This document shows positions 56,001 to 58,716 of a DNA stretch of 64,000 bases, piece after piece. The notes under the pieces are model-generated. The model was not told where the DNA came from and did not search any database. It saw only the letters and a list, made by a program, of their open reading frames with translations. The first letter of the stretch is position 1, and every line of letters starts with the position of its first letter. The translations under genes and the position numbers were made by a program. Source of the stretch: Escherichia phage vB_EcoM_01; sequence record PP129558, one strand, 5' to 3'.

Positions 56001-56249
56001 ATGTCTCTATTAGAAAAACACGTGTTTGAAGATGGTAACGGCAATGCAGTTTTTCTTTTCCATCCAGAAAAATACACATCTGAAAATAATGGTACAACTT
56101 CTATTGTAATCACTAAAGATGTTAAAGTTATTGATTTCTTGGCTCTGATGCGAGAGATGGATCTTGAAATTAATACTTTTAACGCAGAAGCTTTGGTTGT
56201 TGCTCTTCTGGAAAAGAAAGATAGTGAAGAAGTAGCAGAATATGCTTAA
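56001..56249 (+). CDS. Hypothetical protein
   Basis: ORF with AGGAGG RBS. Confidence 0.4.
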   Translation: MSLLEKHVFEDGNGNAVFLFHPEKYTSENNGTTSIVITKDVKVIDFLALMREMDLEINTFNAEALVVALLEKKDSEEVAEYA

Positions 56250-56256
56250 ATAACTA

Positions 56257-56286
56257 TTGACAAACGTATCCTTCATATGTTAGGAT
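56257..56286 (+). promoter_or_regulatory. Candidate sigma70-like promoter ahead of ncRNA/tRNA region
   Basis: TTGACA at 56257, TAGGAT 18 nt downstream. Confidence 0.35.
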
Positions 56287-56299
56287 ACGTTCATCAAGT

Positions 56300-56490
56300 G
56301 TGGTAACAGGGTCGTTGATTTTTGTTAAGAGGGGCTTGCACTGCGGTAGTGTTAGAGACTACTTCTTCAGAGGTTAGCTACCAAAGAGGAAAAGGAATAG
56401 TCTCGGCTCAAGAACTTTTACGCTGAAAGTTGGGCTTGGTCTTAGAGAATGTAGCGATTCTCTACAATCGTCAGCGTCTCTGTTACCACA
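56300..56490 (+). ncRNA. Candidate structured small RNA closed by a long-range helix
   Basis: GTGGTAACAG (56302-) pairs with CTGTTACCAC (56480-); internal hairpins GAGACTA/TAGTCTC and AGAGAAT/ATTCTCT; no ORF. Confidence 0.35.
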
Positions 56491-56495
56491 TTTAT

Positions 56496-56570
56496 GGCCC
56501 TGTAGCTCAATGGGAGAGCTGTCGGCTCATAACCGATAGGTAGCTGGATCGAAACCAGCCAGGGCCACCA
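56496..56570 (+). tRNA. tRNA with CAT anticodon (Met, or Ile via lysidine)
   Basis: Hand-folded cloverleaf: acceptor GGCCCTG/CAGGGCC, anticodon loop CTCATAA, CCA encoded. Confidence 0.65.
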
Positions 56571-56572
56571 AC

Positions 56573-56647
56573 GTCTTTATGGTGTAATGGATAGCACAGG
56601 AGTCTTCTAAACTCTTAGTCAAGGTTCGATTCCTTGTAAAGACACCA
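56573..56647 (+). tRNA. tRNA-Arg (anticodon TCT)
   Basis: Acceptor GTCTTTA/TAAAGAC, T-arm CAAGG-TTCGATT-CCTTG, loop CTTCTAA. Confidence 0.6.
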
Positions 56648-56844
56648 GAACATTTTAACATGAATTAGCTCAAGTGATTTGAACCCACTACTGATCATGG
56701 TGGCAGAGAATGAGGCAAGTATGTCAGACATTATAAACAAAGGCCACGGTTATATTAGAAGACATAAATGCTCGAAGAGCACCGTTCGTGGAGAGCGGGG
56801 GTTGGTGGAGTCACCATTCATGGTAAAATGTTTTAAAAAACTAT

Positions 56845-56879
56845 TGACAACTAACATTATTTTATGTTAGATTATAAGT
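56845..56879 (+). promoter_or_regulatory. Sigma70-like promoter upstream of tRNA-Ser genes
   Basis: TTGACA at 56845; TTAGAT/TATAAG -10 candidates; upstream A tract. Confidence 0.4.
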
Positions 56880-56881
56880 AT

Positions 56882-56972
56882 GGAAGGGCAAATCGACGTG
56901 GCGACGAAAACGGTCTTGAAAACCGCCGAGCTTGAAAGAGCCTTGGGAGTTCGACTCTCCCTCCTTCCGCCA
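56882..56972 (+). tRNA. tRNA-Ser (anticodon TGA), long variable arm
   Basis: Acceptor GGAAGGG/TCCTTCC, loop CTTGAAA, T-arm GGGAG-TTCGACT-CTCCC; D-arm irregular. Confidence 0.55.
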
Positions 56973-56977
56973 GATTA

Positions 56978-57063
56978 GGTAGATTGGTGAAATGGTAGCC
57001 ACGACAGTTTGCTAAACTGTAGTCGGAAACGGCGTGTAGGTTCGAGTCCTACATCTACCGCCA
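56978..57063 (+). tRNA. tRNA-Ser (anticodon GCT), long variable arm
   Basis: Acceptor GGTAGAT/ATCTACC, anticodon arm ACAGT-TTGCTAA-ACTGT. Confidence 0.7.
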
Positions 57064-57193
57064 AGTTCTTTTTAATGTAGCTTACTTTAGCAGAGTAAAT
57101 CTTCGGCAAGTGGCGGTAACCACTTTACCGATACCTCATAGTTAGTGGTGAGAACACTGGCTATTTTAAAAAGAATTTAAATATTAGTATTTA

Positions 57194-57281
57194 GGTGAGT
57201 TAATTCCGTAGGGGTAGCGGGGCAGACTGTAAATCTGTTATCATTGCGATTCGGGTGGTTCGACTCCATCACTCACCACCA
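57194..57281 (+). tRNA. tRNA-Tyr (anticodon GTA), long variable arm
   Basis: Acceptor GGTGAGT/ACTCACC, loop CTGTAAA. Confidence 0.6.
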
Positions 57282-57287
57282 AATTAA

Positions 57288-57373
57288 GATGAGTTGGCTG
57301 AATGGTTTAAGCGGCGGACTGTTAATCCGTGTTCGAAAGAACAATATAGGTTCGAATCCTATACTCATCGCCA
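57288..57373 (+). tRNA. tRNA with long variable arm, anticodon uncertain (best fold reads GTT)
   Basis: Acceptor GATGAGT/ACTCATC, T-arm ATAGG-TTCGAAT-CCTAT; D-arm poorly formed. Confidence 0.45.
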
Positions 57374-57463
57374 GAATTATGGACTTGTAGAGTTAAGGTA
57401 AACCCCCAGTCGCCAATAGGCTTCTGGAATTGCAGGTATCGAATCCTGCCGAGTCCCAGCATT

Positions 57464-57538
57464 GCTCCTATAGTATAATGGCTATTACAACGGTTTTGTA
57501 ATCCGTGGATCTCTGTTCGATTCAGTGTGGGAGCACCA
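57464..57538 (+). tRNA. tRNA-Thr (anticodon TGT)
   Basis: Acceptor GCTCCTA/TGGGAGC, loop TTTGTAA, T-loop TTCGATT. Confidence 0.55.
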
Positions 57539-57811
57539 ACACAACATTAAGAGCACTGTGATTGATCGTCGTATCCTGTGCACAAGGTCTGCTCGAAAGA
57601 CAGTGTTCTTAGTATTGTGTTGATCACAAAAAGAGTCACCCGAAACTTGACCGGAGTAGGGTTGGATGGGGCAAAATGAGAAGCGGCTCTCCCATCGACA
57701 GCAACGAAGAATAATATTTGACTTTGGTTTTGTATTATTTTAAGTTAGCTTACCGAACGTAGGGCTAGTCACCCAACGGGATACTCGTCACTGTCCCAAT
57801 CAATAAAAGTC

Positions 57812-57840
57812 TTGACAACAAATAGTAAAATGTAGTATAG
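57812..57840 (+). promoter_or_regulatory. Sigma70-like promoter (TTGACA-N16-TAGTAT) inside tRNA region
   Basis: Motif upstream of tRNA-Gly. Confidence 0.45.
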
Positions 57841-57852
57841 TAAATATATAGG

Positions 57853-57926
57853 GCGTTCTTGGTGTAGCGGTAGCATTCCGTCCTTCCAAGTCGGCGGCAC
57901 GAGTTCGATCCTCGTAGAACGCTCCA
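57853..57926 (+). tRNA. tRNA-Gly (anticodon TCC)
   Basis: Acceptor GCGTTCT/AGAACGC, T-arm ACGAG-TTCGATC-CTCGT, loop CTTCCAA. Confidence 0.6.
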
Positions 57927-58024
57927 AATTATTTAATAAAGGGTTGCCAGAAAACTTTCTCTTTTACTCATGGTTTTCTCCTTCTCTCACACTTCTTCTG
58001 GTTGCCCTTCATTAAATGATTTAT

Positions 58025-58100
58025 TGGTTTGTAGTGTAGTCCGGTAGCACACGACACTTTGACTGTCGTAGGTTTGGTTCAAATCCAGACAGACCAGCCA
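58025..58100 (+). tRNA. tRNA-Gln (anticodon TTG)
   Basis: Acceptor TGGTTTG/CAGACCA, anticodon arm CGACA-CTTTGAC-TGTCG. Confidence 0.65.
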
Positions 58101-58267
58101 TATAACGGAATTTAGCTCAGTTTGGTAGAGCGTACGCTTTGGGAGCGTAGGGTCGCAGGTTCGAATCCTGCAATNCNGACAGACCAGCCATATAACGGAA
58201 TTTAGCTCAGTTTGGTAGAGCGTACGCTTTGGGAGCGTAGGGTCGCAGGTTCGAATCCTGCAATTCC
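58088..58267. repeat. Exact ~90-bp tandem duplication spanning tRNA-Gln 3' end and tRNA-Pro, N bases at junction (probable assembly artifact)
   Basis: 58088-58177 equals 58178-58267; Ns at 58175 and 58177. Confidence 0.7.
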
Positions 58268-58272
58268 GACCA
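58196..58272 (+). tRNA. tRNA-Pro (anticodon TGG); a redundant copy at 58106-58182 lacks a proper 3' end
   Basis: Acceptor CGGAATT/AATTCCG, anticodon arm TACGC-TTTGGGA-GCGTA, T-loop TTCGAAT. Confidence 0.65.
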
Positions 58273-58278
58273 ATTAAA

Positions 58279-58352
58279 TGTTTCGTAGTTCAATGGTAGA
58301 ACCCACGACTGATAATCGTGAGACACAAGTTCGATTCTTGTCGAAACAACCA
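58279..58352 (+). tRNA. tRNA-Ile (anticodon GAT)
   Basis: Acceptor TGTTTCG/CGAAACA, anticodon arm CACGA-CTGATAA-TCGTG. Confidence 0.7.
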
Positions 58353-58430
58353 GTTTCCCGTTAGACTTACAGGATAAGAGATCCACAATTTATTGTGACG
58401 CTGGTTCGAATCCAGCACGGGATACCTAAT

Positions 58431-58509
58431 AGCGGGATAGAGGAGTCTGGTCGTCCTCGCCAGTTTCATATGCTGGAGATCATTGGTTCAAATCCAATTC
58501 CCGCCTCCA
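58431..58509 (+). tRNA. Second tRNA with CAT anticodon (Met/fMet or Ile2), A1-C72 mismatch
   Basis: T-arm ATTGG-TTCAAAT-CCAAT, anticodon arm CCAGT-TTCATAT-GCTGG. Confidence 0.5.
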
Positions 58510-58623: not shown

Positions 58624-58650
58624 TAGCCTCCTTATTGGAGGCTTTTTGCT
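58624..58650 (+). terminator. Rho-independent terminator after tRNA cluster
   Basis: AGCCTCC-TTATT-GGAGGCT + TTTTT. Confidence 0.55.
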
Positions 58651-58666
58651 ATCTATTGAATAAAAC

Positions 58667-58695
58667 TTGACTTATTATTTTTTATATGTTAAGAT
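58667..58695 (+). promoter_or_regulatory. Sigma70-like promoter (TTGACT-N17-TAAGAT)
   Basis: Motif upstream of gene 58717. Confidence 0.4.
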
Positions 58696-58716
58696 AAAGT
58701 TTAGGAGGATTTTATT

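Follow-up and report, generated by a model that had tools for sequence, protein, structure and literature searches.

What is the stretch of about 190 nucleotides that separates the first gene of a phage tRNA cluster from the promoter in front of it? The question is raised by a locus of Escherichia phage vB_EcoM_01 (sequence record PP129558) within the 64,000-nucleotide stretch of DNA that was analysed (the window), in which positions 56300-56490 had been proposed by an initial annotation to be a candidate structured small RNA. Phage tRNA arrays are now known to counter tRNA-targeting host defences, and Phapecoctavirus phages, to which this phage belongs, are common isolates that are studied as therapy candidates against E. 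coli. The element is a real, evolutionarily maintained folded RNA: its fold, the evolutionary upkeep of this fold, the strand from which it is read, the boundaries of its conservation, the absence of coding potential and its narrow distribution are all directly demonstrated by the data described below. Beyond this, with a probability of roughly 0.55, we propose that it is a genus-specific structured non-coding RNA of ~203 nt, which would act as the promoter-proximal leader of the tRNA operon and be freed from it as a stable small RNA.

Genomic Context and Promoter of the tRNA Cluster

The locus is 99.5% identical to that of Escherichia phage phAPEC8 (JX561091) and many other Phapecoctavirus genomes are equally close; judged by its sequence, the window is a Phapecoctavirus genome of the subfamily Stephanstirmvirinae. 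The element is located at the start of a cluster of 11-12 tRNAs, which extends from 56496 to 58509 with all genes on the + strand (ARAGORN and Rfam), directly 5' of the first of them, and the tRNA-Met that had been placed immediately 3' of the segment indeed starts at 56496. Among the GenBank records that the searches listed, there is not one in which the element is annotated as an RNA; it is left without annotation or, in a few of them (e.g. PsgM04F), appears as a short hypothetical protein. Searches of the neighbouring small proteins against Pfam and PHROGs gave no functional context, and no transcriptome or non-coding RNA study was found in the literature for Phapecoctavirus, phAPEC8 or phi92. 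The locus has also been deposited, at 80-99% identity, under non-enterobacterial hosts, namely as Campylobacter phage B15 (MG065650), Pseudomonas phage PsgM04F (OR584014) and Acinetobacter phage ABPW7 (OP562383), and these records may be mislabelled or contaminant Phapecoctavirus genomes. As a further observation on the first tRNA, the gene together with the 6 nt before it (56490-56570) is 95-96% identical to the tRNA-Met of Escherichia phages of 169-170 kb that belong to a different family and that we take to be T4-like; this likeness suggests that unrelated phage families have exchanged tRNA genes horizontally.

The promoter-like motif noticed upstream of the segment was recovered by a promoter scan as a sigma-70 promoter close to consensus, in which 10 of 12 positions match and the -10 is extended by TG (Table 1), and it is conserved in the lineages of the element. 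Its -35 is invariant across them, and for the -10 the other lineages have TAGGAT or TAAGAT; both hexamers are kept in divergent lineages despite a diverged spacer and a diverged upstream gene. The pattern TTGACA-N15-19-TGTTAGRWT occurs twice in the window, as compared to 0 expected, the second copy being located inside the cluster (56844-56873). The predicted start, A56293, lies 7 nt after the -10. No terminator-like site intervenes from 56293 up to the tRNA; on the + strand, the closest such site is at 58051, and the first good terminator of this strand is located after the last tRNA (58625-58643). With a start at 56293, a helix that ends near tRNA-Met and no intervening terminator, the predicted RNA thus spans approximately 56293-56495 and constitutes the leader of the first tRNA transcription unit.

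An inverted repeat is contained within this promoter (56257-56272 with 56282-56297). The promoters of the tRNA cluster (56257-56297, 56844-56873 and 58667-58696, as well as 3308-3336 of L005) share TTGACA-N17/18-TGTTAGnnT, and by eye each of them has an inverted repeat between the -35 and the -10/+1 region. In lineage B, the repeat of 56257-56297 is preserved by compensatory changes and a G.T pair, AACGTATCCT/AGGATACGTT being replaced by AGCGTGTCTT/AAGATACGCT. Such a repeat could be the operator of a phage regulator or could form an RNA hairpin in read-through transcripts.

Predicted Structure of the Leader RNA

The structure expected from the initial annotation was borne out by folding. The segment of ~200 nt has a minimum free energy of -75.3 kcal/mol as compared to -51.5 +/- 4.2 kcal/mol for its dinucleotide shuffles (z = -5.72), and 0 of 200 shuffles were as stable. 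The reverse complement reaches only -50.1 kcal/mol (z = -3.6), which leaves the + strand more stable by 25 kcal/mol because its fold uses many G.U pairs, and this difference points to an RNA read from the + strand. The covariance model R1 scores 238 bits on the element, on the + strand only.

Table 1. Positions in the window of the promoter, the predicted leader RNA with its helices, and the first tRNA gene
Feature	Position	Strand	Description
Sigma-70-type promoter	56257-56286	+	TTGACA 56257-56262, 18-nt spacer, extended -10 TG-n-TAGGAT 56278-56286; promoter scan
Structured RNA, ~203 nt	56293-56495	+	Predicted start A56293 to the base before tRNA-Met +1
Terminal helix, 5' strand	56296-56318	+	P1 56296-56311, U56312 mismatch, P1b 56313-56318
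Junction, 5' side (model A)	56322-56335	+	P2 56322-56325, P3 56331-56335
P4 hairpin	56338-56352	+	5-bp stem, variable loop; compensatory changes in two pairs
P5 long arm	56355-56404	+	Stems of 6, 2, 5 and 3 bp; tip GGUUAGCUACC invariant
P6 arm	56405-56436	+	6 bp, AGA bulge, stem of 5-7 bp, loop UACGCUG; almost invariant
P3 3' strand, P7 hairpin, P2 3' strand	56439-56467	+	P3 56439-56443; P7 56444-56463, loop GUAGC near-invariant; P2 56464-56467
Terminal helix, 3' strand	56471-56493	+	P1b 56471-56476, U56477 mismatch, P1 56478-56493
tRNA-Met (CAT), first of cluster	56496-56570	+	ARAGORN; Rfam tRNA, 64.5 bits

The first and the last 23 nt are engaged in a near-perfect duplex, composed of 16 bp, a U.U mismatch and 6 bp, which ends 2 nt 5' of tRNA-Met. 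Both strands of the 10-bp long-range helix that had been described are present inside this terminal helix, with GTGGTAACAG at 56300-56309 and CTGTTACCAC at 56480-56489; its position and length needed correction, since the former does not begin at 56302 and the helix comprises 16 + 6 bp rather than 10. The nested hairpins were found as described, GAGACTA (56355-56361) pairing with TAGTCTC (56398-56404) and AGAGAATGTAGCGATTCTCT occupying 56444-56463.

The central junction can be drawn in two mutually exclusive ways, each of which fits all substitutions. In model A, the two strands of P2 pair with each other, as do those of P3 (Table 1), while model B has a hairpin (56319-56323 with 56329-56333) together with a helix of 56437-56440 with 56467-56470. 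Five sequences were evaluated for the energy gap between the two models, which amounts to 3 kcal/mol in the window and does not exceed ~1 kcal/mol in the other four. Furthermore, the loop of P7 (L7, GUAGC) is complementary to GCUAC in the tip of P5, and a loop-loop contact between L7 and the P5 tip is possible; both segments are invariant.

Two exclusive junction folds of near-equal energy in four of five sequences, each compatible with all substitutions, in an element that is placed between a promoter and the genes that it could control, might suggest a regulatory leader, i.e., a riboswitch or conformational switch which, by changing its junction fold when a ligand, a tRNA or a protein is sensed, would control how the downstream tRNAs are transcribed or processed. 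We consider this improbable. Neither an intrinsic terminator nor any other expression platform follows downstream, P1 and the tRNA junction are the same in both folds, no riboswitch or T-box model matches, and the double compatibility could be a coincidence among three lineages. A riboswitch or attenuator was rejected as an identity for the element on the same ground, as there is no expression platform, no terminator between element and tRNA and no coding gene downstream.

Covariation and Pattern of Conservation

The fold was evaluated on an alignment of 11 distinct sequences from three sublineages, designated A (the window, phAPEC8 and others), B (phiWec179, PsgM04F and the contig L012) and C (L006). 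RNAalifold finds 72 pairs in these 11 sequences, 13 of which have compensatory changes. Under model A, 98.2% of the 792 pair cells (72 pairs in 11 sequences) are standard pairs, as compared to only 39-45% in controls in which every 3' partner was slid by 1-3 columns. Pairs changed on both sides number 11, as compared to 0-2 when partners are slid and 1 of 500 column shuffles. The compensated pairs fall in six helices, namely P3, P4, two stems of P5, P6 and P7, and with three sublineages only each of them represents one or two events. Compensatory substitutions beyond the controls, the general hallmark of a structured non-coding RNA, are hence present, within three sublineages only. The structural conservation in related phages on which the candidate had been made to depend was therefore found, the fold being kept through compensatory changes.

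Helix by helix, P4 occurs in the variants CACU/AGUG, CAUC/GAUG and CACA/UGUG, and a pair of P3 (columns 39-153) as G-U, C-G and U-A. In P5, compensatory changes are present at alignment columns 67-110 and 74-98, with three pair types at 75-97. P6 contains one compensatory pair (U-A to A-U, columns 125-137), and five pairs of P7 have changes on both sides. Small variants within lineage A are mostly situated in loops or keep the pairing, four singletons breaking a pair; P1 has single pair-breaking changes in two genomes, and the variable L4 loop has a 1-nt insertion in three.

When representatives of the lineages are compared, 49 of 205 columns are variable overall, whereas P1 is variable at 0 of its 32 positions (chance ~10^-4 at the overall rate of 24%). 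Variation among the representatives is also low in P1b (1/12), P6 (2/32), the P5 tip GGUUAGCUACC (0) and the L7 loop (1/6), and it is high in the P7 stem (10/14), P4 (4/10), P3 (5/10) and the L4 loop (5/6). Between lineages A and B, the element is 81-84% identical and the neighbouring genes and spacers 67-84%. As the identity of the element is no higher than that of its neighbours, the signal resides in the pattern of change and not in an unusual overall conservation. Conservation across the lineages sets in at 56293, the predicted start, with an uninterrupted run of identity, and it stops at the tRNA.

The same alignment bears on the coding capacity of the segment. Most members of lineage A, as well as lineages B and C, have an intact copy of its sole candidate ORF (56322-56426, 34 codons, TTG start), and several GenBank records enter a hypothetical protein over this stretch; a small protein as the reason for conservation is nevertheless hardly credible. 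The 1-nt insertion in L4 frameshifts the ORF in 3 of the 11 sequences (ukendt, ESCO5 and KKP 3954), it has no PHROG family, and its TTG start is buried inside a helix with no visible ribosome-binding site. Changes in it are mostly non-synonymous, with about half of the residues differing between lineages at 81% nucleotide identity, and the substitutions track base pairing, not codons. The segment is accordingly non-coding, as had been stated at the outset.

Known RNA families were also considered. Of the 4227 covariance models in Rfam 15, none has a match in 56293-56495, whether gathering thresholds are applied or E<=10 is allowed with permissive filters, and the copy of lineage B gave only one 11-nt chance match. 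The covariance-model check that accompanied the candidate has thus been run, and no family explains the element. It is not a tRNA or tmRNA, as ARAGORN makes no call in 56293-56495 and the Rfam tRNA, tRNA-Sec and tmRNA models find nothing there at E<=10. A homolog of T4 rnaC or rnaD was similarly rejected, because R1 with filters off yields no full-length match in T4 69000-75000, where its best match (12.9 bits) is a 35-nt hairpin outside rnaC and rnaD.

Distribution Among Phages and Hosts

A blastn search with a distant setting of 50,697 phage records identified the element in 70 of them, all Phapecoctavirus-like, 35 at an identity of at least 99%, 29 at 95-99% and 6 at ~80%. For the protein encoded upstream (56001-56249), records with a close ortholog are equally numerous (64 + 6), and all 70 records with a close ortholog of this gene contain the element. 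More distant orthologs (~46% identity) are present in 57 other records, mainly from Justusliebigvirus. At the syntenic site of phi92, from the sister genus, and of Citrobacter phage Tr1, tRNA genes come almost immediately after the ortholog of the upstream gene, and the element is absent there both by inspection and by the covariance model; it is hence dispensable for such phages. A search of 5,426 E. coli genomes gave no match. When exact patterns were scanned for in IMG/VR, JGI metagenomes and GTDB, one new variant (L006), a contig of lineage B (L012) and one of lineage A (L013) were added, and the remaining pattern matches were due to chance, all of them being rejected by R1. Taken together, the blastn, syntenic-site, pattern-scan and E. 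coli results define an RNA family confined to one phage genus.

Lineage-specific presence, small size and 35-nt imperfect terminal inverted repeats are also features of a MITE, and the neighbouring spacer 2 has a tRNA-like 5' half. Could the element be non-functional or selfish DNA, either a decayed tRNA pair or a MITE-like insertion, whose palindromic ends simply mimic an RNA helix? This is very improbable, because it is present in a single copy in the window and absent from the E. coli genomes searched, no tRNA model matches it, its G.U pairs render the fold strand-specific and its internal helices have been kept by compensatory substitutions. The more general identity of a multicopy mobile element was rejected given the single copy in the 64-kb window and the lack of a match in the 5,426 E. 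coli genomes.

Other Spacers and tRNA Genes of the Cluster

The other spacers of the cluster (56648-56842, 57061-57193 and 57536-57622) are likewise closed by long-range helices, with arms of 17, 19 and 23 nt, respectively (56649-56665 with 56816-56832, 57063-57081 with 57160-57178 and 57537-57559 with 57600-57622). Each of these helices begins immediately 3' of a tRNA and stops short of the following tRNA or promoter, and the fold z-scores of the spacers are, in the same order, -3.5, -3.9 and -2.6. Pairing in the closing helices is kept by compensatory changes, one of them a G-C to C-G swap between the window and phAPEC8, and the interior of spacer 2 diverges without compensation. Since every other spacer is also closed, end-to-end closure emerges as a general design feature of the tRNA operon. 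The leader element differs from the other spacers in that its whole interior is maintained as well; the other spacers may be further structured RNAs or processing modules.

Because such closure is common to the other spacers of the cluster, a cis-acting processing role is a strong rival to the proposal of a freed small RNA. According to it, the leader would be purely a processing or folding module in cis, self-folding to avoid mispairing with the tRNAs and offering its terminal duplex as the point at which RNase III or RNase E enters to separate tRNA dimers, and the excised RNA would be functionless and degraded. We hold this to be possible, with less confidence than would be needed to prefer it. 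Closing helices that abut tRNA ends in every spacer of the cluster, with the fold scores and compensated changes given above and an uncompensated interior in spacer 2, are what such a role predicts, and the terminal helices of the spacers suit a generic function in cis as well as a trans-acting RNA. Pragai and Apirion are reported to have found that T4 requires cleavage by RNase III in front of its first tRNA. However, an insulator requires neither six compensated internal helices nor invariant loops nor a terminal helix whose sequence is invariant among representatives of the lineages, and to judge from the gene order phi92 and Tr1 would express the homologous tRNA region without the element. 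If the leader should turn out to be only a processing spacer, it would still document a design rule of the present tRNA operon by which every spacer is closed by a helix.

Additional observations concern the individual spacers and tRNA genes. The 5' part of spacer 2 (56656-56702) resembles the 5' half of a tRNA, with similarity both to the beginnings of the tRNA-Pro genes and to tRNA-Ile around its anticodon arm (58299-58320), and this spacer may therefore be derived from a decayed tRNA gene. A part of spacer 3 (57075-57135, CTTACTTTAGCAGAGTAAATCTTCGGCAAGTGG...) has by eye a counterpart upstream of the tRNA-Met of Citrobacter phage Tr1 (L005 3250-3305); if this is correct, it would be a small hairpin module common to genera of the subfamily. 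Three tRNA-like regions were missed by ARAGORN. The first, at 56882-56968, is a long-arm, Ser-like tRNA with a UGA anticodon, which is annotated as tRNA-Ser in relatives and scores 37 bits with Rfam tRNA-Sec, below threshold. The second, at 57194-57278, scores 39 bits with Rfam tRNA and carries the annotation tRNA-Tyr in relatives, and the third, at 57380-57463, is tRNA-like by eye with the T arm GCAGGTATCGAATCCTGC. A 90-nt tandem duplication at 58082-58261, 98% identical and with Ns in its second copy, gives rise to two tRNA-Pro genes at a position where phAPEC8 has only one tRNA-Pro, and it is either real or an assembly artefact.

Proposed Mechanism and Implications

In the preferred reading of a leader that is freed as a small RNA, we infer the start site, processing, stability and any function in trans from the promoter, the terminal helix and the adjoining tRNA. 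Host RNA polymerase would initiate at about 56293 from the conserved sigma-70 promoter with its extended -10, and the leader would fold co-transcriptionally into a rod (P1-P1b-P2) and a multi-branched core (P2-P7). Cleavage by RNase P at +1 of tRNA-Met (56496) would then free the RNA and set its 3' end. In the modelled fold, the pairing of 56296-56318 with 56471-56493 (16 bp, U.U and 6 bp) provides the ~20 bp of near-continuous double-stranded RNA that RNase III would take, and as this 23-bp duplex is long enough to be a substrate, a cut by RNase III within the terminal duplex may come first, perhaps before RNase P acts. By either route both ends would be buried in a helix, and hence the product should be a metabolically stable small RNA. 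The invariant terminal helix and the near-invariant loops (GGUUAGCUACC, UACGCUG and GUAGC) would contact a putative partner; the sequence conservation of this helix and of the three loops suggests that such a partner is a specific one.

A more far-reaching version, which we regard as a long shot, is that the RNA acts in trans and belongs to a new class of phage RNAs, being produced very early together with the tRNAs from a strong host-type promoter and serving as a decoy or inhibitor, or as a two-state switch. As a decoy or inhibitor, it would be directed against a tRNA-attacking or tRNA-processing factor of the host (anticodon nucleases, TOPRIM tRNases or RNase III), and as a two-state switch it would couple the processing of the tRNA operon to a cellular signal. 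Under this version, the RNA would work through its near-invariant loops and the two junction folds of roughly equal energy as functional surfaces.

With a well-supported fold, defined ends and a distribution limited to a single genus, the element is a candidate for a new RNA family, and the phage tRNA array is the type of locus in which this candidate resides. As a second, unrelated RNA of a tRNA cluster, placed directly behind a strong promoter, it would offer an easy system for experiments.

Comparison with Known Systems

Among known RNAs, the terminal duplex is reminiscent of RNase III processing stems, in which a duplex of about two helical turns is built from the flanks of a domain beside a mature stable RNA. 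Examples of such stems are found in the precursors of E. coli 16S and 23S rRNA, upstream of tRNA-Gln in T4 and in the early mRNA of T7. Unlike the stems of rRNA precursors, the duplex modelled here would enclose a conserved core of 150 nt and not an rRNA.

Like GOLLD and ROOL, the leader is phage-borne, elaborately folded and adjacent to tRNAs. GOLLD and ROOL are RNAs of 500-800 nt that are widespread in Firmicutes-type phages; the leader, in contrast, has 203 nt, is limited to one genus of E. coli phages and finds no match in Rfam 15. With the bacterial Y RNAs (YrlA), which combine a terminal stem with a tRNA-like module, it shares ends that are paired in a long stem around a branched domain, which in one of the two folds contains a four-way junction (P3-P4-P5-P6). 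It differs from YrlA in that a tRNA-like T or D arm is missing, Rfam gives no match and neither a tRNA nor a tmRNA is called in it.

The parallel originally drawn was with the tRNA cluster of T4, which gives rise to two small stable RNAs, RNAC and RNAD, that are expressed and have no assigned role (PMC3014915; PMC9697503), a situation that has lasted for decades. In the T4 annotation, these species 1 and species 2 stable RNAs are located at 71046-70908 (RNAC) and 71171-71053 (RNAD). The parallel is valid as an analogy, since T4 does have two such RNAs, and does not extend to homology, as judged by the search with R1. In both systems, a small non-coding RNA (119-139 nt in T4, ~203 nt here) lies in a phage tRNA cluster on the strand of the tRNAs. 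The T4 pair is situated at the distal end of its cluster after tRNA-Arg, in contrast to the promoter-proximal leader described here, and RNAC has a tRNA-like T arm (CCGGGUUCGAAUCCCGG), whereas the present element is devoid of one. RNAC and RNAD were detected experimentally, whereas the RNA of the present cluster is predicted from its sequence. By analogy, the leader would thus resemble RNAC and RNAD in kind, not in ancestry.
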